This document shows positions 14,467 to 29,107 of a stretch of 32,000 nt of DNA, piece by piece. Both the position numbers and the translations under genes were made by a program. Every line of letters begins with the position of its first letter. The stretch's first letter is position 1. The notes below the pieces were generated by a model. The model was not told the origin of the DNA and searched no databases. It saw only the letters and a list, made by a program, of their open reading frames with translations. The DNA comes from Candidatus Brocadia sp. GTDB taxonomy: Bacteria > Planctomycetota > Brocadiia > Brocadiales > Brocadiaceae. The stretch spans positions 2,580,001-2,612,000 of the forward strand of contig CP091279.1 in the NCBI GenBank assembly GCA_021650915.1, in the 5' to 3' direction.

Positions 14467-16185
14467 GTAACTATTCAGCGAAAATATTTTAGAATTTAGT
14501 TGACAGTCAACATGAGAAAAGGGGGCCGTAGAATTGGTTGGTAGAATAAATGGCTGTGGAGGATGCCACTGTAGCCCATCGGAGGTTTTTGCAAAGAGAG
14601 GTGTGGGGTATGTTCGGCCAGAGAATTACAGAGTTTTGTAGGGCGGTAGAGGGTGAAAAAAATGGGTGAAAAAGCCTGTGGTATAATAGCCGCAGGAGAT
14701 GATTTCAGGCTATTAATACCGGTGCCATCCATTGACGATAGAGAATATAGATATAGATGCAACGCTGCGGAAAGTAGAAAAGCTGCTTTCAGAGGAAAAA
14801 GGTCTGTCACCTGCCATAAGGTCAATGATAGAGTTGTTGGTGTTAGTGATAACGCTGCTGGTAGGACGTCTGAACCGGAACAGTCGCAACAGTAGTAAGC
14901 CGCCCGCAAGCGATCCGAATCGCACGAGAAAGAGCAGGGCGAAAGGAGAGAGGAAGGCAGGTGGGCAAGAGGGTCATGATGGAGTAACGCTGAAAAAGGT
15001 AGCCAATCCTGATAAGGTGGAAGTAATAAAAGTAGACCGGAGGAAGTATCCGAGCGGCAAATACAGGTTGATCGGTTATGAGTCGCGTCAGGTGTTTGAT
15101 ATGAAGATTTCAAGGGTGGTAACGGAGTATCGGGCAGAGATAGTTGAGGATGCGGAGGGAAGTAGGTTTGTAGCGTCATTTCCGGAAGGGGTGACAAAGG
15201 CAGTGCAGTATGGGCCGGATTTGAAAGCGCACGCAGTATATATGTCACAGTATCAATTGATACCCAATAAGAGGATCCAGGAGTATTTTGAGGAGCAGAT
15301 GGGGATACCGCTGAGCGAAGGCTCTCTTTACAACTTTAACAAGGATGCCTACGAATCTCTGGAAGCCTTCGAGAGGAAAACCAAGGAAGAACTTGTCAAA
15401 TCAGAGGTATTGCAGGCAGATGAAACGAGCATCAACAAGAACGGAGACAGGTATTGGCTGCATAGTGCATCCAATAGTTTGTGGACACACTTTTTCCCTC
15501 ACGAAAGACGTGGGACGGAAGCGATGGATAGTATCGGGATACTGCCCCAGTTTCGGGGGATTCTTTGTCACGACCATTTGAAGGCGTATTACACCTACAC
15601 CCGCTGTACACATGCGCTCTGTAATGCACACCACCTGAGGGAATTGGAAGGGGTGTGGGAAGAGGATAAGAAGCAACCGTGGGCGAAAGAGATGAAAGCC
15701 CTGCTCGAAGAGATAAACCGTGCGGTAAAGGATGCGGGGGGTTTGTTGGAAAACGGCGAGTCTGAGAAATACCGGCAAAGGTACCGGGGGATATTACAAA
15801 ACGCAGAAGCTGAAAGCCCGCCCCCTGATGAAACGAACCGTAAGGGGGAAAGAGGGCGGGTAAAAAGGACAAAAGCACGGAATCTCCTGGAACGATTACG
15901 GGAGTATGAGGGTGATGTGCTCAGATTTATGGACAATAAAAACGTCCCCTTCACGAATAACCTGGCCGAAAACGATATCAGGATGACGAAGGTTCAGCAG
16001 AAGATATCGGGCTGTTTTCGTTCTCTGGACGGAGCGAAGATCTTCTGCCTCATCCGTAGTTATCTCTCGACTTGTCGAAAACAAGGGGTAAATTTAAGTC
16101 AGGCATTACGGATGGTATTTCGCGGCAAATTGCCTGATTTTGCCAGCTCGTAACGATAGGGGGCGATATTACGCTGAATAGTTAC
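14467..16185 (+). mobile_element. IS66-family insertion sequence, single-ORF (ISBst12-like) type, 1719 bp
   Basis: Perfect 14-bp terminal inverted repeats: GTAACTATTCAGCG (14467-14480) and CGCTGAATAGTTAC (16172-16185). The 8-bp direct target duplication CTTGAATT lies at 14459-14466 and 16186-16193. Both the 8-bp TSD and the GTAA-start IR are IS66-family hallmarks. Confidence 0.9.
14732..16153 (+). CDS. IS66-family (ISBst12-like) transposase
   Basis: LQADETSINKNG..YWLH, ILCHDHLKAYYTY and HALCNAHHLRELEGV are typical of DDE_Tnp_IS66 proteins. The start is TTG. The extended -10 TGGTATAAT at 14679-14687 lies upstream inside the IS. Confidence 0.9.
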   Translation: MTIENIDIDATLRKVEKLLSEEKGLSPAIRSMIELLVLVITLLVGRLNRNSRNSSKPPASDPNRTRKSRAKGERKAGGQEGHDGVTLKKVANPDKVEVIKVDRRKYPSGKYRLIGYESRQVFDMKISRVVTEYRAEIVEDAEGSRFVASFPEGVTKAVQYGPDLKAHAVYMSQYQLIPNKRIQEYFEEQMGIPLSEGSLYNFNKDAYESLEAFERKTKEELVKSEVLQADETSINKNGDRYWLHSASNSLWTHFFPHERRGTEAMDSIGILPQFRGILCHDHLKAYYTYTRCTHALCNAHHLRELEGVWEEDKKQPWAKEMKALLEEINRAVKDAGGLLENGESEKYRQRYRGILQNAEAESPPPDETNRKGERGRVKRTKARNLLERLREYEGDVLRFMDNKNVPFTNNLAENDIRMTKVQQKISGCFRSLDGAKIFCLIRSYLSTCRKQGVNLSQALRMVFRGKLPDFASS

Positions 16186-16506: not shown

Positions 16507-17532
16507 CTATGTTAGTAGATCGAATTTTTTCCAGCGATGAATAACGGGGGCTTCATTAATTTCAGATATTCCTTTTAATATTCTATTTCGCAATTCGACA
16601 ACAGAATCAACCCTAATGTGCTTTAAGAAGGTTCGGGCCATTTTACCAAATAGTGTTTCCACCAGATTAAGCCAGGAGCCGTGCTTTGGAGTATGAACAT
16701 AAACGAATCTATTTGGCCGGCTTGATAGATATCGCAAGGTCTCTTTTGAAATATGCGCAGAATGATTGTCTAAAACAATTCGTATCGTATATGCTGATGG
16801 ATAAAAGGCATCCAGTTCTTTTAAAAGCTCGATAAATTCTTTGCTTCTGTGACGTTCATGAACCTGGGCTATTACATGCCCTGTATGCAAATCTAAAGCG
16901 GCTAATATGCTCACGGTTCCCAAGCGTTTATATTCATAATCTCGGAGAACCTGAGGACATTTACCTGCTATAGGTTTTAAGTCTGGTGCAATATTTTTTA
17001 TTGCCTGAACACCGGGCTTTTCATCTACGGAAACGGTAATCGTTCGATTGCCAGAAATTTTTTCTGAAGCATCTTGTTTGTTTTGCAGGTTAACCTCTTG
17101 GTAAACCATAAGGACGTCTTCCATTTTACGCTTAAATTCTGGATCCCGTTTCTCTAAATAATAGCGTATCTTATGTGGTTGTACGGGATGTTCTTTTAAT
17201 ATTCTATGAATCGTGGCTTTTGAGGCCTTTGAAAGACACGCATATCCCTCCTGGGGGGCATATTTTCTTGTGTGTTTTGCTAAAAGGCTTTGCGTCCACA
17301 GTTCTGCTGCATATCCATGGTCTTTGGGTTTTGTGCATGCAATATTTACAACCCACATCTTTGCATTCTCGGTAATTGTGGGCTCTTTGGGCCGATGATA
17401 TTTATCTCTTAGCGCTTCTTCCGGGCCTAACGCCAATGCCTTTTCAATGTATTTATAAATGGTTTCCCTGCTTAGCCCTATCGATTTTTGAATTGCTGTT
17501 ATAGATTCTTCTTGATACTTCTTAAGAAGCAC
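16507..17532 (-). CDS. IS630-family (Tc1/mariner-like DDE) transposase, main part; separated from its N-terminal HTH segment by an in-frame TAA
   Basis: VSVDEKPGVQA, ILAALDLHTGHV and VLDNHSAHISKETLRYL...HTPKHGSWLNLVETLFGKM are typical of IS630 DDE transposases. The ORF-track start is a GTG immediately after the TAA at 17533-17535. Confidence 0.85.
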   Translation of the reverse strand: MLLKKYQEESITAIQKSIGLSRETIYKYIEKALALGPEEALRDKYHRPKEPTITENAKMWVVNIACTKPKDHGYAAELWTQSLLAKHTRKYAPQEGYACLSKASKATIHRILKEHPVQPHKIRYYLEKRDPEFKRKMEDVLMVYQEVNLQNKQDASEKISGNRTITVSVDEKPGVQAIKNIAPDLKPIAGKCPQVLRDYEYKRLGTVSILAALDLHTGHVIAQVHERHRSKEFIELLKELDAFYPSAYTIRIVLDNHSAHISKETLRYLSSRPNRFVYVHTPKHGSWLNLVETLFGKMARTFLKHIRVDSVVELRNRILKGISEINEAPVIHRWKKFDLLT

Positions 17533-18035: not shown

Positions 18036-21000
18036 TTACTCCTTCTTCGAAACCTGTGTCTTTGCCCATTCAAGGATCTGGTCGAATTTGCTCTGGCCGG
18101 GCGGAGGCGGGTTGAGTAAGGGGCGGAACTTTTTGTCGTAAACGAAATAATCTCCACCATCGCGGCAGGAAAGAGAAAGGGTTTTTCTGAATTCTAACCC
18201 ATCCCGCTGCACCTGCCAGAAAAAGGTTGCCCCCTGAAAAAATGTGTTAAGGAGTGGGTTCGGTTTGCCTTTATCCAGGAACAACGTGTACAAACTGATA
18301 TCCCACAGACGCACACGATTGTTTTGTGAGCCGGTGGCCAGATACCTCCCGTCCGGACTAAATGTTACGCTGGTGAAAAGAGCAGGCTCGTCTATGTCTA
18401 TAGACACCGTAAGGAATGGCTCAGGAACCCCGGTCGAGATATCCCATACATTCAAATTAAATAGTGAACTGCATGCAAGATATTTGCTGTCAGGACTGAA
18501 TGAAAGACTGGTTCCCGGCCCACATAAACCAGTTGCAGTAATCTTCTGCACGATCTTACCAGAGAAAAAATCCCACAACCGCAGGTCGCCATCAATAGTA
18601 ACAGAGGCGAGGTATTTCTCGTCAAGGCTAAATGCTATGTTTGCAATACGATCGGACAATGCCTCCATTGACGTGTCTCCGGAACGCGAATAACCCTCCA
18701 ACTCCCTTACCTTATTTCTCGTTTCGACCTCCCATATGAAAATCTTATGCGTATCAGTTGAGGCAAGATACTTCCCACTGGGGTGAAAAAAAAGACCTAT
18801 TACGCTATCGGTATGACCAGTCAACTTACGCAGAATCTCTCGGGTGGAGACATTCCATAATAGTATCGTGTCGTCTTTTGCGCCTGATGCAAGATATTTT
18901 CCATTAGGACTGAACGCAACACTCATAACAGTATTTGTATGACCCGTTAATGCACGAGAACCCTCTCCGGACTTCCCCTCCTTGTCCTTATCTTCCCGCG
19001 CGTTATTCCCCAAAAAACGCATGCGGTCATCCCATTCGTTATTATTGTCAGAAGAGCCGTTGACAATGTCTGGCTCCCCACCGGCATTCCCATCGTGGAG
19101 ACCACCGTCATCAGAAAACCCTCCCTGATCCTCACTAGAAGTGTCTCCCTTCAGTTCACACACAAGCTCGCCGGTATCAGCGTCCCACAAACGCACGCTG
19201 TTTTTGTATGCACCCGATGCAAGATATTTCCCATCCGGACTGAACGCTATGCTAATAACAGGATACGTATGTCCTTTTAATTCCTTTACCACCTTCGTAA
19301 AGAGGTTATATAAACGCAAAGTGCCATCAACAGTGCCATAGGCAAGACACTCACCTTTGGGGTGATATGCAACACTATAAACCTGAAAATCTGCTCCATC
19401 GAAATCTTTTACTTCCTTTCCCGCAGGTACATCCCACAAACGTATTGTGTTGTTGTACGAACCTGAGGCGAGAAACTTTCCATCAGGGCTGAATGCGACA
19501 CTCCAGACTTCATCTTCATGTCCTTCCAAATTCTTTATTACCTCTCCTGTGTGGAAATCCCATAACCGCACACTATTATCAGCTGAGCCGGCCGCAAGGT
19601 GCTTCTCATCGGGACTAAACGCTACGCTCGTAACCCTATCGGTATGTCCCGGGAGTTCCCGCACCAGCACACCGGTGGCCGCATCCCACAGCCGCACACC
19701 ATTGTTCCACGAGCCGGAGGCCAGGTATCTCCCATCGAGACTAAACGCCACACTCGTAACCCCATATGTATGTCCCGGGAGTTCCCGCACCAGCACACCG
19801 GTGGCCGCATCCCACAATTGCACACCCGTATCGTATGATCCAGAGGCAAGGTACTTGCCATCAGGGCTAAATGCCACACTTCTTACGTCGCTGGTATGCC
19901 CTGCGAACTTTAGTAATTTTTTTCCTTTTGCAACATCCCACAACCGAACACTCTCATCATCCGAACCCGATGCAAGATATTTCCCATCAGGGCTAAATGC
20001 CACGCTTACAACAGCATCAGTATGTCCTTCCATTTCATAAACCAACTTCTTTTTTGAGAGATCCCACAACCGCACGATTTTATCGTTTCCACCGAAAGCA
20101 AGGTATTTCCCGTCAAGGCTGAATGCCACACTCTCGACGGATACTCCATGCCCGCTCCATAGCACCTCTTCTTCACCGTCAGAGATGTTCCGTACACATA
20201 CGATACCCTGTTTTGAGCCGGTGGCAAGGCTCTTGCCATCGGGACTATAAGCTAAGGAAAGAATGGCATCCTCCTGCCCTTTTGGTTCATGCACCTCTTT
20301 TACGTTAAATCTCTCAATAGGAACGTCCCATAAACTCACACTGCAATCAGCCGATCCTGTAGCAAGGTACTTCCCATCAGGGCTGAATGCGACGCTCCTA
20401 ACCTTATCGGTATGCCATCCTGACAGTATGGCAACCTCTTTTTTGATAGAAACATCCCATATCCTTGCGCTTTTATCATATGACCCGGATGCAAGGTATC
20501 CGCCATCGGGACTAAATGCGACGCTACTAACATAATCGGTATGTCCTTCCCACTTATGCTCTTCTTTTCCGGTGGCAACCTTCCACAACCGCACACTCTT
20601 GTCTTGGGAACCGGATGCAAGGTATTTGCCATCAGGACTGAATGCAACACTCCAGACGGCATATTCATGCCCTGACAGTTTCTTTGTCTCCCCTGTCTTG
20701 ACATTCCACAACCGCACACTATCATCGGATAAACCGAGGGCAAGCGTCCCCCCGTTAGGACTGAACGCTATACACTGGACGCTCCCATCGAGCTCATTTA
20801 GGCTATTCTTTTTATTTCCCGTCCTGACATTCCACAACTGTACACTGCTATCGTATGATCCAGAGGCAAGGTACTTGCCATCAGGACTAAATGCTACACT
20901 TATAACAGTATCCGTATGACCTTTGATGACCCTCTTTACTTTTCCCGTGGCAATCTCCCATAATCGAACGCTCTTGTCAACTGAGCCTGAGGCAAGATAC

Positions 21001-23876
21001 TTCCCATCAGGACTAAATGCCACGCTTTCAACAGCATCAGTATGTCCTTCCAGAATAAGCACCTCCTCCCCCGTGGCAACCTCCCACAATCGCACACTCT
21101 TGTCATCTGCAGATGATGCAAGGTATTGCCCATCCCAGCTAAATGCGACACAATTGACAACATCTTCATGCCCTGTCTTATACAAAGATTTTCCTGTGGA
21201 GACATCCCAGAGACCCACGCTGTAATGGTACGAACCCGTGGCAAGCATCTTGCCGTCCGGATGAAACGCTATGCTCATAACGTTATCTGTATGCTGCAAT
21301 ACCTTCACCGTTTTGCCGGTAGATATATCCCACAAACGTACAATCTCATCACCTGAACCTGAGGCAAGATACTTCCCATCGGGACTAAATGCCACGCTTG
21401 TAACAGCATCAGTATGACCTTCCAGTTTTCTGTTTTTTCTTGTTTCAATATCCCACAATAGCACACTCTTGTCCACTGAACCTGAAGCAAGATACTTTCC
21501 GTCCGGGCTGAATGCGACACTCCAGACTTTATCTTCATGTACTTCAAATGTATCTTTTTTCATTCCTGTAGCGAAATCCCATAAAATTACACTCTTGTCA
21601 AATGAAGCTGAAGCAAGGTACTTCCCATCCGGATCAAACGCGAGGCCTGGAACAAGATTTTCATGTCCCTTCATCGTACGTACCTGTTTCAAGGAAGGGA
21701 CCTCCAGCACTTCAATATTAAAACCCGAGGGAAAGGCAAGATATTTGCCATCCGGGCTAATGGCTATTCTCCCGATCATGGGCACTTTTGGGGATACACC
21801 TTTTCTGTGCAGTAGCTTTCCGGTAGAGGGATCCATTATCAGCAAGGTTCCATCCTCTGAACAGGAAACAAGATGTTTTCCATCGGGAGTAAACGCTATA
21901 TCCCAAACAGTGCGTTTGTGTTCCTTCCATACATATATCGGGTCTCCGGTAGACACATCCCACAAGCGGATGACGCCATCATGTGAACCGGAAGCCAACC
22001 ACTTTTTATTTCTGCTAAACGCCACACAGCATACAGGAGAATCCATGTTCATTGTCGGTGAATGCCAGCGTTGAGTAAACGCCGATCTCATGACCTTTGG
22101 ATCAAACAGTTCTCCTAAAGTTTTCTTTCCTATGGCAATTGGCCATGGCTCAAGAGTTTCCTGTAACGCGGTATTTGCGAAGAGAAAGGCGTTCTTATAC
22201 CCTTCATAGTTATTTTTATTTTTCGCTGTTTCCAACGCTCCAATTGCTTTTTCTTCCAGCGTTTTAACAATTACTTTAGTTGCCTCATATCGTGCTTTTT
22301 TTTCTTCATCTTCAAGCCGTTTTATCTTAAAGGAAATAATAATAGCGATAACAAGAAGAATCCCTATCACTCCCAGTAAAATACGCATAATTTTTAGGTG
22401 CTTCTTTTGCTGTTTGGCTTTTTCTCTCTGCAAGCGTTCCCGTTCTTCCCGTTGTCTTTCTTTCTCCTGGAGTTCTTGTTTAAATGCCTCATGACTCTTG
22501 TTGAGGAAATCAATGGCATCCGGAAAACCCCTGGTGTCTCTTATACCCCATAGTCTCGTTGAATATTTTTGCCCTTGCCAGTCCAGGGCAATCTGTAAAT
22601 CGGTTTCGCGATAGAGCTCCGCCTTACCCCGTGTATTCAATTTAGCAGTTTCTGCAAGCCGCTTATAGATCCTGGCGGATTCTGCCTCTTCGTCAACCCA
22701 TCTGGATAAGGTCTCCCATTGCCGGATAAGGCTTTCATGGGAAATATCAATAATGGGATCGGTATCAGATGAAACTACGAGGAAGTTGCGGTCGTTTTCC
22801 CGGAATTTTTCTATTGTCATCATGACCCTTTCAGGGGCCGCGCCGCATATTTCAGCAATCTCGTTCAAATTCGTTGGCCGGCGTACACGACGATTTCCGG
22901 CATCGGTCTCCGTAATCGTTTTAAACAGATATTCGGCTATTACCCTGTCTTCATCATTTAATTCACGCAACGCCTCTTCCGCATGACGGGAGAGGGCGTG
23001 TTCCATCGTGTGGATTTCTTCGTAGTGCCGGATGTCGATGGGGCCATTGCCATTTTTTCCCCAGGCCGACCAGGTACGCATGAGGACATGCTGCAAAACC
23101 GGTAATTCATCATGGCTATCGCTGCTCTCATTCAGCAGGCGGTCAGACAGGCGCGGTGTAATGTATGCACCATAGAGGTGAATGGGGCCTTCAATGGCTT
23201 CGCGGCGCTGCTGGCGGGTCAGGCGCGGCACCAGGTACTGGCCTTTATTCATAGCTTCCGGCAGGCCGTGGAAGGAATCACAGTCGCCGAGAAAATCTGA
23301 ACGCATGGTCATGGTTACGTACACCGGTATCTCTCTCTGCTCAGCGAGACCAAGCATAATGGATACAAAATCTGCTACGTTATCGCTCATTTCAGCCTTG
23401 CCATGGTGCAGACCAAAACGAAATATCTCTTCGAATTGATCCACCAGTAATAAGACATTGGTATCATCTTTTTTTAAAGAGGATGCAAGTCTGTCGATGA
23501 CAGCCTGCACGCCCTGCTCACGAATCATCCTGGTAAACTCTGTAATCTGTTCGCTAATTTCTTTTTTACCTTTGGCATCGAGCAATGATGCTGCCAGGTT
23601 ATGGATCGGGTTATCTCCGGGCTTCGTCCTGACAATGAGCCAATCGTCACGGTCTGCCACAAGAAACCCCACCTGTAATCGGGGAATTAAACCGGCGCGG
23701 ACAAGGGAAGATTTACCACAGCCGGAACTGCCAACAACCGCCAGGAAACGGTTCTTACGGAGCTGCTGTAAAAGCTCAAGGATTTGTTCATGCCGGCCAA
23801 AGAAGAGCAGGCTTTCATGCGCCTCAAAAGGTCTCAGCCCGACAAACGGATTTGCTGGCAAGGCATTCCGGCTCAT
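18036..23876 (-). CDS. STAND P-loop NTPase (NACHT/nSTAND-like) - single TM helix - 28x WD40 repeat protein
   Basis: N-terminus PFVGLRPFEAHESLLFFGRHEQ..FLAVVGSSGCGKSSLVRAGLIPRL (Walker A at about 23703-23729). Walker B is LLLVDQFEEIF. A helical region follows (HESLIRQWETLSRWV). A charged coiled-coil flanks the hydrophobic MRILLGVIGILLVIAIIISF (22326-22388). I counted 28 units of the type GH...V.SVAFSPDGKYLASGS.D.SVRLWD across about 18240-22080. Confidence 0.9.
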   Translation of the reverse strand: MSRNALPANPFVGLRPFEAHESLLFFGRHEQILELLQQLRKNRFLAVVGSSGCGKSSLVRAGLIPRLQVGFLVADRDDWLIVRTKPGDNPIHNLAASLLDAKGKKEISEQITEFTRMIREQGVQAVIDRLASSLKKDDTNVLLLVDQFEEIFRFGLHHGKAEMSDNVADFVSIMLGLAEQREIPVYVTMTMRSDFLGDCDSFHGLPEAMNKGQYLVPRLTRQQRREAIEGPIHLYGAYITPRLSDRLLNESSDSHDELPVLQHVLMRTWSAWGKNGNGPIDIRHYEEIHTMEHALSRHAEEALRELNDEDRVIAEYLFKTITETDAGNRRVRRPTNLNEIAEICGAAPERVMMTIEKFRENDRNFLVVSSDTDPIIDISHESLIRQWETLSRWVDEEAESARIYKRLAETAKLNTRGKAELYRETDLQIALDWQGQKYSTRLWGIRDTRGFPDAIDFLNKSHEAFKQELQEKERQREERERLQREKAKQQKKHLKIMRILLGVIGILLVIAIIISFKIKRLEDEEKKARYEATKVIVKTLEEKAIGALETAKNKNNYEGYKNAFLFANTALQETLEPWPIAIGKKTLGELFDPKVMRSAFTQRWHSPTMNMDSPVCCVAFSRNKKWLASGSHDGVIRLWDVSTGDPIYVWKEHKRTVWDIAFTPDGKHLVSCSEDGTLLIMDPSTGKLLHRKGVSPKVPMIGRIAISPDGKYLAFPSGFNIEVLEVPSLKQVRTMKGHENLVPGLAFDPDGKYLASASFDKSVILWDFATGMKKDTFEVHEDKVWSVAFSPDGKYLASGSVDKSVLLWDIETRKNRKLEGHTDAVTSVAFSPDGKYLASGSGDEIVRLWDISTGKTVKVLQHTDNVMSIAFHPDGKMLATGSYHYSVGLWDVSTGKSLYKTGHEDVVNCVAFSWDGQYLASSADDKSVRLWEVATGEEVLILEGHTDAVESVAFSPDGKYLASGSVDKSVRLWEIATGKVKRVIKGHTDTVISVAFSPDGKYLASGSYDSSVQLWNVRTGNKKNSLNELDGSVQCIAFSPNGGTLALGLSDDSVRLWNVKTGETKKLSGHEYAVWSVAFSPDGKYLASGSQDKSVRLWKVATGKEEHKWEGHTDYVSSVAFSPDGGYLASGSYDKSARIWDVSIKKEVAILSGWHTDKVRSVAFSPDGKYLATGSADCSVSLWDVPIERFNVKEVHEPKGQEDAILSLAYSPDGKSLATGSKQGIVCVRNISDGEEEVLWSGHGVSVESVAFSLDGKYLAFGGNDKIVRLWDLSKKKLVYEMEGHTDAVVSVAFSPDGKYLASGSDDESVRLWDVAKGKKLLKFAGHTSDVRSVAFSPDGKYLASGSYDTGVQLWDAATGVLVRELPGHTYGVTSVAFSLDGRYLASGSWNNGVRLWDAATGVLVRELPGHTDRVTSVAFSPDEKHLAAGSADNSVRLWDFHTGEVIKNLEGHEDEVWSVAFSPDGKFLASGSYNNTIRLWDVPAGKEVKDFDGADFQVYSVAYHPKGECLAYGTVDGTLRLYNLFTKVVKELKGHTYPVISIAFSPDGKYLASGAYKNSVRLWDADTGELVCELKGDTSSEDQGGFSDDGGLHDGNAGGEPDIVNGSSDNNNEWDDRMRFLGNNAREDKDKEGKSGEGSRALTGHTNTVMSVAFSPNGKYLASGAKDDTILLWNVSTREILRKLTGHTDSVIGLFFHPSGKYLASTDTHKIFIWEVETRNKVRELEGYSRSGDTSMEALSDRIANIAFSLDEKYLASVTIDGDLRLWDFFSGKIVQKITATGLCGPGTSLSFSPDSKYLACSSLFNLNVWDISTGVPEPFLTVSIDIDEPALFTSVTFSPDGRYLATGSQNNRVRLWDISLYTLFLDKGKPNPLLNTFFQGATFFWQVQRDGLEFRKTLSLSCRDGGDYFVYDKKFRPLLNPPPPGQSKFDQILEWAKTQVSKKE

Positions 23877-25381
23877 GCGGCACCGCCTTTCTGCATCAGG
23901 TGCAATACCGGGGCAAGCGCTCCGGATTCAATCGAGGCGCTTTTACTGTTGTCAATGAGATGTACCCGTATGGCTTGGCCAAGGTTGAAATTAAGGTCTC
24001 TTTTCTCAGGTGGAATGGCAAAGACGCAGAAATATTTTATCGGGAATTTTTTTGTAAAGCTGAGTTGCAGAGCGGCGCTAAGCCGCTGACGCACCCAATT
24101 TTCATTCACGCTGCCAAACAGTATCATGAGCATAGACACCTCTTTGAGCCTGGCTTCAAGGGCATCCATATTCTTGCCTGGATCGTCTTCCTGGGGGTTT
24201 ATGTAAGGCTGGATGTTATTCTCCAAAAGAAATTTGCTTAAATCCAGGGCATATCTCTGGTCTTTTACATGGGTATCCAGAAGCACGGCGTGAGGCGCGC
24301 CATTCGCTTTGGCTGCTGTTTGCAACCGCTCTATCTTTTCGATAATTTGCGGCACCAAATCAGCAGGTATCCCGCGTATGAAATCATAAGCGGCACGAGT
24401 CCGGTCGTCACTTTCGAGTTTGGTTAGAAACTCCTTCTGGCATTCATCTTCAATCGTTTCCAGATCGAGATCCTTTGACGCCCAGATGAGTTGTGCGGCA
24501 GTGGCGTTCAATGCGAGTTCCACTTGTTTTCGTGGATAAGAAATGTCAGGCTCACCTTCAATTTCTCTTCCGGAGTAGCCGTCTAACAGATGAACACTGA
24601 GAACCGATTCCTTGAGTACGACGCTGACCCTTTCTTCATGTGCCCGGGCTTCATACGGAGGGGGTATATTGCTCACTATTTTTATCCCCTTGCGCTGCAA
24701 ATCATTGACTACGCGGGATCGCACGGAACGCAGGGAATCGCTGACATCAGAAACAAAGACACACGGGATGTCTTTTAACGATACGGTTTCTTTTCCTGGT
24801 TTCCGGGTTGCCGTACCCTCTGCCTTTGTTTTAAAGGCCTGAAGCATCGTATGGAGGGAATCAACCAGTTTTCTGAGTTGATCGTGAAACCTTTTGTCGG
24901 CCGGATCGGTTGGCATTCCGACAGCGTCGGTTTTCTCTGCGTCATGGAAGGGATATCCACTCATACCGCTGAATTCCTTTGGCCATTTGTCATAGGGAAT
25001 GTTGCTCAATAATACGTTGTATATCCGCGAGCGATCACCCATCTGTAATCCATATTTTTCTGCCTGTGCTTTTGTGTGAAACAACTGTAACTCCTTTGGA
25101 CAATAACTATCAGGGTGAAAGTAGCCATGGGAAGTAAGCGCCAGGAACAGTGCAGATTTATCAATAGCGGACTGAATTGTGTTGTCCAACAATTGATTGC
25201 CTTCAAGCCTCATATCTCGCCAGATTTTTACCAGTCCCATCCGGCCGATGCATTTTGCGAGGGCAATTTCCAGTTCTTCATGAAACTGATTGACCCAGCA
25301 TGACTTGCCTTGTATAGCGCAATTGTCGACATGTGCGTAGCTGATAAAGATGTCGTGTTCAAAACCGGGGATGTAGGCCAT
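23873..25381 (-). CDS. TIR-domain protein with ~340-aa C-terminal extension
   Basis: The preferred start is ATG at 25381 (GGAG 8 nt upstream); the ORF-track start at 25444 has no RBS. TIR-like motifs: DIFISYAHVDN, IWRDMRLEGNQLLDNTIQSAIDKSALFLALTSHGYF, YCPKELQLF. Its TGA overlaps the ATG of the STAND gene (ATGA at 23873-23876). Confidence 0.8.
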   Translation of the reverse strand: MAYIPGFEHDIFISYAHVDNCAIQGKSCWVNQFHEELEIALAKCIGRMGLVKIWRDMRLEGNQLLDNTIQSAIDKSALFLALTSHGYFHPDSYCPKELQLFHTKAQAEKYGLQMGDRSRIYNVLLSNIPYDKWPKEFSGMSGYPFHDAEKTDAVGMPTDPADKRFHDQLRKLVDSLHTMLQAFKTKAEGTATRKPGKETVSLKDIPCVFVSDVSDSLRSVRSRVVNDLQRKGIKIVSNIPPPYEARAHEERVSVVLKESVLSVHLLDGYSGREIEGEPDISYPRKQVELALNATAAQLIWASKDLDLETIEDECQKEFLTKLESDDRTRAAYDFIRGIPADLVPQIIEKIERLQTAAKANGAPHAVLLDTHVKDQRYALDLSKFLLENNIQPYINPQEDDPGKNMDALEARLKEVSMLMILFGSVNENWVRQRLSAALQLSFTKKFPIKYFCVFAIPPEKRDLNFNLGQAIRVHLIDNSKSASIESGALAPVLHLMQKGGAA

Positions 25382-25504
25382 AACAAAACTCCATGTTTTG
25401 ATGAGAGACAGGCGAAAAAACGCAAGTAATATATCAAAAGACATTCAGAATAGCCAGTATTTCTTTCCTTGACGCCAAGACATTTCAATCTTGTAGATGC
25501 AATT

Positions 25505-27559
25505 TATAGAGCTGGCGCATAAGCGAAAAGATTCGTTGTAAATCAGGGAGAAGAGGCGATAGGACGGGGCAATAATTTTGTAAAGTCTACAAAAAGATAT
25601 CAAGAACGGCAGCATGAAAAGGCTTGTTTTTCAGGGGAGATGAAAAAATATTTGAAGAAAAGAGGGGAAAAATTACAAAATAGTCGTGCCCATCTTGTAT
25701 AATAAATCAGGCAAACTATTCGAAATACCATACAAGGGAGGGCACAGTGAAATGATACCATTATTGAGGAACACAAGCCAGCAAAAACCATTATTCCATA
25801 TCATTCATGAAGACGACAGATATTTGCTGAATACCGATGATGCGGAGTGGTTTCAGGTATTGTACCATTTTCGATACGAAAGATATGTGGGGTTTGGAGT
25901 AGACTATTATAATGCGCTGCATGAATTTAACCAGAAGCAGGCCAGGGAGCGAGAAGAGCGAGGAGTTGAGGGGGAGAAAGATGCGAGGGAGACCAAGGAG
26001 GAAGCGCGGCAGAGATTGCTCTTTTCACGGGTAACCATGCAGGCAGAGGGTGAGAGAGGAGAAGGGGTTTTATTCGAGGTAAAAAGAGAAGATTTGTCGC
26101 TATCGGGGGTATCTCCGGAGAGTATAGCGCCTGGCAAGGTGCCATTTCGATTTGGGGGGAAAAAGCCGAAGTGTTTTTTTGCTTTGCTGAAGAGTTTTAT
26201 CGGTGCAACGATAATGGGGTTTCCCGCCGAGCCGGAAAAGGTGTACCGGTTATTGAAGAGCAATCCCAGTTTTGCGCGGGTATGTGGATTTATTCCCAGA
26301 CACGTCAGGGACGAGTATTGCAGTGAGCACATACCAAGCCTTCGGAAGCTGGAGCAGTTTGACCAGATCATGAGAGAAAGCGGGATATGGGCGAGGATAA
26401 AAGTGGAAGAGGTGAAAGCGAACATAACGAGTGGGATCATAAGAAAGGAAAATGAGTTGGTGGGAGACACGACCCATTATTACGCGTATTCGGGCTTTGA
26501 GACCGTAGTATATAAAGATGCGAGTGGCAAAGAGCAGAAGAAATCGCAGTCAAAGGTAACCAAGAGGTGTGGTTGCGAAGATAAGCAGGGGTGCAGTCAT
26601 TCGTGGGGATTGAGTGATGATGGGGCGGGGACAATCGTAAAATCCGGGGGAAAGATGTATTGGGGTCACAAGGCAAGTGTGCTTGGGTATCCCCGTCAAG
26701 GGATACCCTTAGATGCGCGTGCGATAAAGGATGCGGCGACCTTTGATGGAATGACCTTATACCCGCACGTGAAGGAAGTCTTTGAGATGTATCCGGAGAT
26801 TCAACCGTCGGTAGAAAGGGTATTGTATGATAGCGCAGGCGACAGTGATGAAATCAAGAAGAAATTCAGGGAGGATCTGGGTATAGAGGTAAAGGTGTCT
26901 TTCAATCCAAGAAGGAAAAAGGAGATCACGGAAGATTTGCCACGAGGAATAGACAAGATTACACCGTATGGTATTCCGGTGTGTAAGGCGGGATACGAGA
27001 TGGAATATCAGGGGATGAGATACGAACATGAGAAGTTTATCTATCAAGCGCCAAAGGATTCAGACAATGCGCCGGTATGTCGCGCTTGTTATCATCGAGA
27101 GGATTGTTGCCCAAATGCTACCGGTGGCAGGATAATCAATATCTCGTTTGGTCTCTTGCCACACATAGACCCCAAAGACCCTCCGATGGCGAAGAGGTAC
27201 AAGGCCATCATGTCCCGTCGTCCTGCGGTGGAAAGGATGATAAAACGGTTGAAGTGTGACTTTGGGGATGATCGGCTCACGAAGCGGGGAAACGATTCGT
27301 TCCAGGCATACCTGGATAAAACCATGATTGCGTTTCATGTCTTGTTAAGAAACTAAATCTGGTTTTCAGCGTAAAAGAGTCGTCGTGTGGAGGGATGGTA
27401 CGTCTGGAATTCGGCTTATTTGGTCTGGTGTCCTCTGACGAATCGTTTTTCTCTCTCTTTGACCTCGCTTTTGAGTGAAATCCGTTTCTCTGTCAATGCA
27501 CACATGATGCAGTTCCGCCTTTTCATGGCTTGTTTTTTAGTTTATGCGCAGGCTCTATA
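25505..27559 (+). mobile_element. IS4/IS5-superfamily-like insertion sequence (about 2.06 kb)
   Basis: The terminal inverted repeats are TATAGAGCTGGCGCATAAGC (25505-25524) and the reverse complement of 27540-27559, TATAGAGCCTGCGCATAAAC. These match at 17 of 20 positions. The element has a single DDE transposase ORF. No clear target duplication found. Confidence 0.7.
25752..27356 (+). CDS. DDE transposase (IS4-like; DDE_Tnp_1-type C-terminus)
   Basis: Candidate catalytic residues are in VGDTTHYYAYSG and VLYDSAGDSDE. The C-terminal RRPAVERMIKRLK carries the R-x3-E-x6-K signature, followed by LTKRGNDSFQAYLDKTMIAFHVLL. ATG at 25752 is preferred because GGGAGGG and the extended -10 TGTATAAT (25696-25703) lie upstream; the ORF track starts at 25686. 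Confidence 0.8.
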   Translation: MIPLLRNTSQQKPLFHIIHEDDRYLLNTDDAEWFQVLYHFRYERYVGFGVDYYNALHEFNQKQAREREERGVEGEKDARETKEEARQRLLFSRVTMQAEGERGEGVLFEVKREDLSLSGVSPESIAPGKVPFRFGGKKPKCFFALLKSFIGATIMGFPAEPEKVYRLLKSNPSFARVCGFIPRHVRDEYCSEHIPSLRKLEQFDQIMRESGIWARIKVEEVKANITSGIIRKENELVGDTTHYYAYSGFETVVYKDASGKEQKKSQSKVTKRCGCEDKQGCSHSWGLSDDGAGTIVKSGGKMYWGHKASVLGYPRQGIPLDARAIKDAATFDGMTLYPHVKEVFEMYPEIQPSVERVLYDSAGDSDEIKKKFREDLGIEVKVSFNPRRKKEITEDLPRGIDKITPYGIPVCKAGYEMEYQGMRYEHEKFIYQAPKDSDNAPVCRACYHREDCCPNATGGRIINISFGLLPHIDPKDPPMAKRYKAIMSRRPAVERMIKRLKCDFGDDRLTKRGNDSFQAYLDKTMIAFHVLLRN

Positions 27560-27813
27560 GTATTACCGTATAAAATCTTTCTTTTTTACAAGTTTTTCGA
27601 CAACCCCCTTTACCCCCTTTGCTAAGGGGGAATTGGTTTTGGTTGCGGCTGTGCTGCGTTATGAATTGCATCAATACTCCACCCTGAGCGCCCGTGTCGC
27701 CACTGGCCTGCTCAATAATCTTGTTGATGACGCGGCTATTAACCATTACTATTAAAGGTGAGGTATCTATTTTTTAATCATGCACTACGCCTTTGAAAAA
27801 GGGGTTAATCACA

Positions 27814-28335
27814 ATGAAGAAAATTGGCAAAGGCTTCGCCCGTTCTTATGGCATACCGGTTCTTGTATTCTTATTCATGGCGGGTTGCGCGCCGGTAATA
27901 TCGAAACAGGTCAGGGAACAAGTGAGACCAGAAGTTACTTTTGCCGAAGTGTTCAATGATCCCGGACGGTACAAAGGTCAAATGATCGTCTTAAGTGGGA
28001 TCGTTCTCAAGACCGAGAATACTAAAGAAGGAACCCTACTGCAAATATTACAGCGTCCTGCTGGATTTCGAGGAAAGCCTAAGGATGTGGATGAAACCGG
28101 CGGAAGGTTTCTGGCGCTCGACAGCCGTTACTTAGATGTGAATGTATTTACTGAAGGACGGGCGGTTACCATTGCAGGGGAGGTTCAGGGGAAGAGGACT
28201 CTCCCTCTGGATAAGATAGAGTATACGTATCCATTAATTTCCGTGAAGGAATTATATCTTTGGCCCGCCACAAGAAACTACCATGCCCCTCATTCTTCCG
28301 TGCATATCGGTCTTGGCGTTGGACATTCCTACTGA
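27814..28335 (+). CDS. Slp-family outer-membrane lipoprotein, paralogue 1
   Basis: Signal peptide with lipobox LFMAGC. The body resembles Slp (PG.Y.G......G.V.......gTLL.I...P........P.......GRFLA....YLD...F..GR.VT..G.V.G). ATG at 27814 is preferred over the upstream TTG. Confidence 0.7.
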   Translation: MKKIGKGFARSYGIPVLVFLFMAGCAPVISKQVREQVRPEVTFAEVFNDPGRYKGQMIVLSGIVLKTENTKEGTLLQILQRPAGFRGKPKDVDETGGRFLALDSRYLDVNVFTEGRAVTIAGEVQGKRTLPLDKIEYTYPLISVKELYLWPATRNYHAPHSSVHIGLGVGHSY

Positions 28336-28513
28336 TAAAGCTTGAAATAGCTGTGATTCGTACAAAAAACGATAGGTATTTCTGCAAAGGCGGATTATAT
28401 CCTCTCTTTACTCAATAATCTTGTTGATGACATGGTTATAAAGCATTATCATTAATAATAAGCATGTTTATTTTTAATCATACATACTGTTTTTGAAATT
28501 TCAGGGGAAGATT

Positions 28514-29107
28514 ATGGTGAAGGAAACCGGCAAGGCGTTTGTTTCTTCTTATGGCATGCCGATTATTCTATTCTTATTCATGGCCAGTTGCGCGCCGGTG
28601 ATATCAAAGCAGGTCAGGGATCAGGTCAGACCTGAGATGACTTTCAGTGCGGTATTCAGGGATCCCGAAGGCTATAAGGGACAAATGATTGTTTTAAGCG
28701 GGGTCATTGTGAGCGCTGAAAATACGAAAGAGGGAACGTTATTACAGATAGTGCAGCGTCCCGCGGGTTTTCGGGGACAGCCGAAGGATGTGGACACAAC
28801 GGAAGGCAGATTTTTGGCGCTTGACAGCCGGTACCTGGATACCTATGTCTATGCAAAGGACAGAGAAGTTACGGTTGCCGGAGAAGTTCAGGGAAAGAGA
28901 ACCTTGCCTCTGGATAAGACCGAGTATACGTACCCGATGATTCAGGTGAAGGAATTGTACCTTTGGCCGGTGATTGAGCATCGTGATTATTCCCCTTATC
29001 CGTATTACTATCGTCATCCCTTTTTTTATTATGATGACTACTGGTGGTGGCAACCCTATCCAGCAGATAAAAGAAAATGTGAGAAGTCCGGCAAATCTAA
29101 AAAATAA
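28514..29107 (+). CDS. Slp-family outer-membrane lipoprotein, paralogue 2, with aromatic-rich C-terminal tail
   Basis: Lipobox LFMASC. It is collinear with paralogue 1 over about 150 aa, then adds YSPYPYYYRHPFFYYDDYWWWQPYPADKRKCEKSGKSKK. Confidence 0.7.
   Translation: MVKETGKAFVSSYGMPIILFLFMASCAPVISKQVRDQVRPEMTFSAVFRDPEGYKGQMIVLSGVIVSAENTKEGTLLQIVQRPAGFRGQPKDVDTTEGRFLALDSRYLDTYVYAKDREVTVAGEVQGKRTLPLDKTEYTYPMIQVKELYLWPVIEHRDYSPYPYYYRHPFFYYDDYWWWQPYPADKRKCEKSGKSKK

Follow-up and report, generated by a model that had tools for sequence, protein, structure and literature searches.

Apaf-1, CED-4, and the bacterial Avs and bNACHT proteins are soluble, cytosolic STANDs with WD40 or TPR sensors that respond to cytosolic ligands through a shared effector-NTPase-repeat sensor logic, with an output driven by oligomerization. 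To our knowledge, every characterized STAND/NLR sensor of animals, plants, fungi, and bacteria detects intracellular ligands. Here we consider a locus of "Candidatus Brocadia sp." within a 32,000-nucleotide stretch of DNA (the window; contig CP091279.1, positions 2,580,001 to 2,612,000, forward strand; all coordinates below are window positions) that follows this logic but has a predicted transmembrane (TM) helix between the NTPase and the sensor and a separate, co-translated protein as its effector. With reasonable though not strong confidence, we read the locus as a two-gene cassette in which a type II transmembrane STAND (NLR-like) receptor would sense in the periplasm and, together with a TIR effector, would give its NTPase/TIR output in the cytoplasm.

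Kaur, Iyer, Burroughs, and Aravind (2021, PMC8195603) delineated the nSTAND1 clade among predicted conflict systems. The locus resembles that clade in its match to the family model, its C-terminal repeats, and its effector-type partner, encoded next to the NTPase or joined to it. Their text places nSTAND1 with effector-associated domains (EADs), effectors, and FGS domains and mentions no membrane helix, whereas here a TM helix is near-universal among the relatives sampled and an EAD is absent. TM-bearing STAND ATPases have already been seen in defense-gene surveys: "transmembrane STAND ATPases" appear as sensors fused to Pepco-associated proteases in one phrase and a figure item of a 2025 preprint, with no topology analysis (bioRxiv 10.1101/2025.11.14.688446). 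Their effector is a protease with Pepco rather than a TIR protein. Doré et al. (2024) annotated TM segments and predicted a cytoplasmic or periplasmic location for some STAND-associated targets of diversity-generating retroelements. A 2026 survey of defense STANDs in Nature treats sensing as intracellular recognition, and the sole "TM" label there stands in a legend, on architectures of Avs7/Dsr1-sensor homologues. Conflict systems combining STAND and TIR proteins are therefore already known, and the transmembrane architecture has been glimpsed before, in the 2025 preprint. A literature search on nSTAND1, transmembrane or membrane-anchored STAND/NLR proteins, and periplasmic STAND with TIR and WD40 returned no dedicated description, and three points were not found described in the literature searched: the near-universal TM helix of the clade, the exported-domain repertoire with its parity of TM number, and the conserved TIR partner.

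Other systems share single features with the locus. The iSTAND ternary systems and the KAP NTPases are conflict-system NTPases that work at the membrane. The peptidoglycan-associating domains PEGA, OmpA, and PASTA of iSTAND systems come after TM segments, and TM segments with wall-binding domains are found on other components in iSTAND, DO-GTPase, and EACC1 conflict systems (Kaur 2020, PMC7159879). The iSTAND TM and peptidoglycan-binding domains are carried by the vWA component, and the TM segments of KAP NTPases lie inside the KAP P-loop domain (Aravind 2004), whereas here the helix separates the STAND NTPase from the sensor. Toll-like receptors, in which one TM helix joins extracellular sensor repeats to a cytoplasmic TIR output, provide a working analogy only, and the family considered here includes an LRR variant (P0223). 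Toll-like receptors, however, lack an NTPase and are type I proteins that carry TIR on the receptor chain itself, while the present receptor would be type II, with the NTPase between the TM helix and a separate TIR protein, and homology is limited to the TIR and LRR folds. A type II layout like the one proposed here is found in Mycobacterium tuberculosis PknD, a receptor Ser/Thr kinase with an extracytoplasmic beta-propeller. TonB likewise crosses the membrane once, with its N-terminal module in the cytoplasm and its C-terminal domain exported, and one relative of the Brocadia protein (P0184) copies the TonB linker and C-terminal domain. The cytoplasmic module is a kinase in PknD and a short N terminus in TonB; here it is a STAND NTPase.

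The nSTAND1-TM-WD40 protein and its hydrophobic segment

The receptor gene (18036-23876, minus strand), taken from the open reading frame (ORF) list and its translation, is an uninterrupted ORF of 1946 amino acids (aa). Residues 10-412 (22641-23849) match the Pfam nSTAND1 model PF20703 (E value of 5.5e-93; 313 bits against a cutoff of 27.1) over model positions 1-369 of 379, and by this match the protein is a member of the nSTAND1 clade of STAND NTPases. The P-loop motifs are intact: Walker A, GSSGCGKSS, lies at aa 49-57 (23706-23732), Walker B, VLLLVDQFEE, at aa 141-150 (23427-23456), and a TMRSDF motif at aa 190-195 (23292-23309), and residues D146, Q147, E149, E150, and R192 are invariant in 45 sequences. 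An AlphaFold2 (AF2) model of aa 1-640, with a predicted local distance difference test (pLDDT) score of 82, retrieved Cdc6/Orc1, CED-4, Apaf-1, ZAR1, and NRC3 at E values of 5.6e-8 to 5e-5. The modeled fold is of the STAND/Cdc6-like type, with NTPase, helical, and winged-helix parts as in Cdc6/Orc1 and Apaf-1/CED-4.

The sequence-only reading of the window had described a 20-residue hydrophobic segment between the NTPase and WD40 halves. That segment is real: MRILLGVIGILLVIAIIISF occupies aa 497-516 (22329-22388). The upper bound of 22388 originally given for it is correct, and the lower bound of 22326 was one codon too far. Adding I496 gives an uncharged stretch of 21 aa (IMRILLGVIGILLVIAIIISF, aa 496-516, 22329-22391), predicted from its hydropathy and conserved position to be a TM helix acting as a signal anchor. 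The 19-residue Kyte-Doolittle (KD) mean of the segment is 3.05, compared with 1.17 for the runner-up anywhere in the protein, and 2000 shuffles that preserved the composition of the protein all stayed below 3.05. In a simple additive Hessa-type calculation, the insertion energy came to approximately -3.5 kcal/mol for this segment and +9.0 for its closest rival in the protein, values that are indicative only. By hydropathy, this is the single stretch of bilayer length (~20 residues) in the protein, there is no second one, and no N-terminal hydrophobic signal was found.

Charged coiled coils had also been proposed on both sides of the segment. Charged flanks do occupy these places, upstream at aa 466-495 (KQELQ...KKHLK, 22392-22481) and downstream at aa 519-534 (KRLEDEEKKARYEATK, 22275-22322), the latter being amphipathic. 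The upstream flank nevertheless does not qualify as a canonical coiled coil: E, R, K, and Q account for 25 of the 30 residues, its only 3 Leu residues are irregularly spaced, and it has neither an apolar a/d heptad pattern nor a heptad core. It looks like an ER/K-type single helix, by composition a juxtamembrane helix that is predicted to be cytoplasmic and that ends in the basic cluster KKHLK. In the AF2 model, built with 45 aligned homologues, it is part of one unbroken helix (aa 451-554) that runs through the hydrophobic segment and, judged by secondary structure alone, belongs to no globular element. M497 was also considered as the internal start of a separate signal-anchored WD40 protein, and this was ruled out because homologues do not keep the Met.

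Absence of the segment from orthologues had been named as an outcome that would refute the sequence-only reading, and nearly all of them have one. With aa 1-613 as the query, 7093 proteins were recovered at an E value of ≤1e-10; the NTPase alone, queried against 1.84 billion representatives, gave 47,087 matches, 9,229 of them at ≤1e-30. Conservation was counted in the 243 retrieved homologues that extend 90 residues or more beyond the NTPase, with a segment defined by a KD value of ≥1.8. Such a segment follows the NTPase in 234 of these 243, at a distance of 15-45 aa (median, 19 residues after its end), and seven of the remaining nine have a weaker segment at the same place, with an Arg cluster before it. 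Many metagenomic homologues are fragments or carry possibly collapsed WD40 arrays. Across 80 genome loci (35-47% identity) from Bacteroidota, Acidobacteriota, Planctomycetota, Verrucomicrobiota, Cyanobacteria, and Proteobacteria, the segment is present in 75 of 78 evaluable genes. Of the three loci without a clear segment, L073 truly has none, a Bradyrhizobium gene has a weak, Ala-rich version, and one gene is apparently frameshifted. Because the matches were aligned over the NTPase only (~75% query coverage), this conservation is not an artifact of the query. In all, ~320 relatives were inspected, the closest ones of many thousands of family members. The hydrophobic segment is neither a chance occurrence nor a local oddity.

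The ~1,430 residues C-terminal of the segment contain 25 Pfam WD40 stretches and many matches to beta-propeller families. A conserved helical linker or stalk (aa 517-612, 22041-22328; AF2 helices to aa 599), kept in WD40-type homologues and predicted to be periplasmic, leads into an array of ~28 WD40 blades by Pfam matches and motif count (aa 613-1855, 18312-22040), the predicted periplasmic sensor. The array is followed by a conserved C-terminal tail of ~90 aa (aa 1856-1946, 18039-18311) that is found in WD40-type homologues of any repeat number. The combination of superstructure-forming C-terminal repeats, here WD40, with an adjacent TIR protein as an effector-type partner is typical of STANDs.

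The WD40 content differs hugely among close homologues with the same linker and tail, from ~2 blades (P0001, 769 aa; P0376, 279 aa) to the ~28 seen here, and reflects either real repeat expansion and contraction or the collapse of short-read assemblies. The sole DNA-level tandem repeat in the WD40 region (19557-19880) has a period of 126 bp, or one blade, with 2.6 copies and 78% matches; a single array at this identity gives no sign of very recent repeat homogenization. An acidic, low-complexity insert of ~70 aa, rich in Gly, Asp, Asn, and Ser (aa 1578-1650, 18927-19145, minus strand), interrupts the array between propeller units.

Proposed membrane topology and the TIR partner

A single, uniformly apolar helix of 21 residues between two large domains would, if inserted, place the two halves of the protein on opposite sides of the membrane, and such a helix cannot be re-entrant or lie in the membrane plane. 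The NTPase half would have to be cytoplasmic because the protein has no signal sequence and the NTPase needs nucleoside triphosphate. We regard aa 496-516 as very probably a true TM segment and export of the WD40 half as likely, though less secure. Four comparative lines, namely, flank charge, the domains found after the TM helix, the parity of TM number, and a stand-alone copy of the exported module, agree in pointing to an arrangement with the NTPase inside and the propellers outside. Together with the conservation of the segment, they support the proposal of the sequence-only reading that the NTPase and its TIR partner sit on one side of the membrane and the propellers on the other.

Across 250 single-TM relatives, the 10-residue flanks of the helix contain on average 4.78 Lys and Arg residues before it and 2.36 after it, and the N-terminal flank is the more basic in 220; the relatedness of these sequences inflates the p-values attached to these flank-charge statistics. 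A basic N-terminal flank is conserved in the family.

The domains carried behind the helix form a varied repertoire. WD40 after one TM helix is the commonest C terminus (106 of 223 classified), and TPR, LRR (P0223), and Tectonin also occur there. Modules of periplasmic or cell wall type likewise follow a single TM helix: Peptidase_M15_4 in a 15-member cluster, PEGA with FGE (P0198), GH19 (P0109), two copies of PG_binding_1 with GH19 (L008), and TonB_C behind a TonB-like linker rich in Pro, Ser, and Gly (P0184). CHAT, a cytoplasmic-type caspase-like protease, follows two TM helices (P0029), and the pentapeptide-repeat variants mostly have four.

A 279-aa gene of "Ca. Electrothrix" encodes MQKQKREKQLFK followed by a hydrophobic helix, the same linker, WD40, and the same conserved tail. 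It has no NTPase upstream, where the neighboring gene encodes an unrelated Fe-S protein, and the TM-linker-WD40-tail module therefore exists as a signal-anchored protein. A search with the linker and tail for other architectures gave 14 matches, mostly gene fragments, of which the Electrothrix gene was the one informative case.

The TIR partner is encoded on the minus strand by a 523-codon ORF (23873-25444). Its true start is probably M22 at 25381 (MAYIPGFEHDIFISY...), which gives a protein of 502 aa; the first 21 codons of the ORF (MSFDILLAFFRLSLIKTWSFV, 25382-25444, minus strand) have no counterpart in any homologue. The TIR domain (~25067-25351) scores 34.3 bits with the Pfam TIR_2 model (cutoff, 28) and includes a conserved candidate catalytic Glu (25091-25093) within a YC..E motif whose residues Y93, C94, and E97 (E118 in ORF numbering) are invariant in 41 sequences. 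A sequence search of the PDB with the partner gave no match; its AF2 model, compared by Foldseek, retrieved the TIR domains of RPP1, RUN1, and SARM1. Two further alpha/beta domains follow, whose equivalents in relatives score as DUF4062. The partner is a putative TIR-domain NADase effector.

The start codon of the STAND gene overlaps the TIR stop codon in a 4-nucleotide ATGA, and in this arrangement the TIR protein is translationally coupled upstream of the STAND gene. A TIR gene of ~500 aa is found upstream of the WD40, M15, pentapeptide, CHAT, and TPR variants, typically with the 4-nucleotide overlap. That the TIR protein is a true partner of the STAND protein is supported by its position directly upstream in 56 of 72 genome loci (iterated hidden Markov model search) and from two relatives (P0130 and P0171) in which the whole TIR partner is fused N-terminally to nSTAND1. 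These fusions give the canonical effector-NTPase-sensor order and put TIR on the NTPase side of the membrane. At three metagenomic loci, the partner was called as two ORFs (L002, 285 and 234 aa; L005, 335 and 125 aa; L006, 250 and 225 aa), which are either real splits between the TIR and C-terminal domains or frameshift errors.

Proposed mechanism and alternative explanations

Under the receptor-effector reading, the NTPase (aa 1 to ~450) and the ER/K-rich helix would stay in the cytoplasm, aa 496-516 would form an uncleaved, single-pass signal anchor in the inner membrane, and the stalk, the ~28 WD40 blades, and the conserved tail would be exported to the periplasm of a diderm host. The propellers could then bind an extracytoplasmic ligand or sense a perturbation of the envelope, and binding might relieve autoinhibition or cluster receptors in the plane of the membrane. 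The change would be relayed via the stalk, the TM helix, and the ER/K helix to the cytoplasmic nSTAND1 modules, which would exchange nucleotide and oligomerize like other STANDs. The oligomer would gather the co-translated TIR partner of ~500 aa and activate its TIR domains by proximity, and the activated TIR might consume NAD+ or make a signal, leading to growth arrest or death. Activation of TIR and DUF4062 NADases depends on oligomerization (PMC13174449). Signaling from outside to inside toward the TIR partner is given slightly better than an even chance.

Several observations weigh against this reading. In the Brocadia protein itself, the Lys and Arg counts are almost equal on the two sides of the helix (7 before and 6 after; net charges, +6 and +1), with KIKR directly after it, and the AF2 confidence of the helix running through the segment is moderate (pLDDT, ~57-79). 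L073, from Thermoanaerobaculia, is an nSTAND1-WD40 protein without any hydrophobic segment, so this pairing can also work without a membrane. WD40, TPR, and LRR are compartment-neutral domains, and one relative (P0147) has TPR and FHA, the latter usually cytoplasmic, after one TM helix. A TIR partner is lacking at 16 of the 72 loci. The PADLOC 2023 models (Avs, bNACHT, Thoeris, and others) gave no system-level match, with only a weak ThsB TIR-like match (20.9 bits) and weak P-loop matches; NCBIfam likewise gave no system-level match, and its FxsC_Nterm match, at 38.9 bits, is far under the cutoff of 130.

The segment might, as one alternative, not be inserted at all and instead be buried in a soluble oligomer or a domain core, with the whole protein cytoplasmic. 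The TM-less L073 and the basic residues on both sides of the segment in this protein would fit such an arrangement. We consider it very improbable, since every face of the helix is apolar across its 21 residues, which is not so in coiled-coil or core helices, AF2 gives an isolated long helix, and the positive-inside bias, the TM parity, the periplasmic-type domains, and the stand-alone signal-anchored copy would be left unexplained. Less easily dismissed, though still unlikely, is a helix that spans the membrane as a tether, with sensing carried out in the cytoplasm by the NTPase and TIR partner and with the exported module serving as output or anchor; signaling would then run from inside to outside or not cross the membrane. 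The exported module would hydrolyze the wall in the M15, GH19, and hydrolase variants and provide envelope attachment or scaffolding in the WD40, TPR, and TonB_C variants. Indeed, Peptidase_M15_4, GH19, and an alpha/beta hydrolase after the TM helix could act on the wall as effectors, TonB_C and PG_binding_1 are attachment modules, and the four-TM pentapeptide variants have no large exported domain. Against this, in Apaf-1, NLRs, and Avs the C-terminal repeat arrays sense the ligand and the N-terminal or partner domain is the effector, as holds for STANDs in general. The effector slot is here already taken by the TIR partner, N-terminally fused in P0130 and P0171, and the commonest modules after the TM helix are binding repeats, namely, WD40 (106 of 223) together with TPR and LRR.

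A receptor of the same topology could also serve a nonimmune purpose, such as envelope-stress, cell-cell recognition, or developmental signaling, which we hold to be a little less likely again than the tether. The failure of known defense-system models to match is in keeping with such a role, as are the Ser/Thr kinase fused to the partner at planctomycete loci and the occurrence of relatives in cable bacteria and other multicellular or filamentous lineages (PMC7159879). A putative conflict or immunity role fits better with the catalytic-type Glu kept by the partner TIR, with the transposase genes that flank the cassette and the toxin-antitoxin, TIR, and patatin genes near relatives, and with the highly varied sensors on a constant NTPase-TM chassis, which are typical of conflict systems. 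Finally, the protein could be an artifact, either a chimeric ORF of two genes or an assembly error joining NTPase and WD40 genes. WD40 arrays are prone to assembly problems, and homologues with the same linker and tail range in length from ~720 to >2000 aa. The chimeric ORF was rejected because the junction is conserved: the same NTPase-TM-linker junction recurs in hundreds of independent contigs and genomes, and the ORF here is uninterrupted, which leaves an artifact with a negligible chance.

If the sensor arm of the transmembrane receptor is exported, the NLR switch would in bacteria serve for surveillance of the periplasm or cell surface as well, where possible targets include phage adsorption and injection machinery, wall damage, injected toxins, predators, and neighboring cells. 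The logic would be the outside-in logic of Toll-like receptors on an NLR chassis, with WD40, TPR, LRR, Tectonin, FGE, TonB_C, and peptidoglycan-binding domains as sensors. More tentatively, at a little short of an even chance, we suggest that the family is a very large, unrecognized class of bacterial transmembrane NLR-like receptors that watch the periplasm and envelope, not the cytoplasm, via swappable exported sensors and whose signal passes by way of one helix to a cytoplasmic STAND switch and to a TIR/DUF4062-type NADase. As to the scale of such a class, the NTPase matches amount to ~47,000 clusters at 50% identity, and a TM helix is present in at least 96% of the ~320 relatives examined. 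The architecture would raise the directly testable question of how a ligand on one side of a single helix controls NTPase oligomerization on the other, and the family, with its constant chassis and interchangeable exported domains, provides natural experiments and may yield receptors that can be engineered.

Genomic context and variant loci

Three transposase genes bracket the cassette, encoding an IS66 family transposase (14732-16153, plus strand), a DDE_3/IS630-like transposase (16507-17532, minus strand), and, as a weak match, a DDE_Tnp_1_6 transposase (25686-27356, plus strand), and suggest a mobile or island setting. Relatives have TIR, patatin, and antitoxin genes nearby. Tandem paralogous genes for Slp-family outer membrane lipoproteins (27793-28335 and 28493-29107, plus strand) adjoin the cassette, and two adjacent Slp genes indicate a diderm host. 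A promoter and terminator scan gave counts near the shuffled expectation and was left unused.

The partner position varies among relatives. In planctomycete relatives (L067:3569-5974 and L025:3430-5925), the partner begins with a Ser/Thr protein kinase joined to its TIR-like/DUF4062 scaffold, and the constant part of the partner may be an adaptor able to carry different effectors. Several Bacteroidota loci (L012:2644-5805, L027:2604-5765, and L040:2660-5821) have no TIR partner; a conserved multi-TM protein of ~1053 aa is encoded directly upstream of the nSTAND1-TM gene and has a hydrophobic region at its N terminus, HEAT repeats, and, at its C terminus, a domain that binds cyclic nucleotides.

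Additional hydrophobic segments were seen in a few relatives. Some Bacteroidota proteins have a second segment at the extreme C terminus (L007, aa ~784-804; L081, aa ~1029-1047), which could be an anchor or a sorting signal. One 1138-aa protein (P0121) has two nSTAND1 matches with four hydrophobic segments between them and another near the C terminus, and represents either two family members fused in tandem or two gene calls that were merged.

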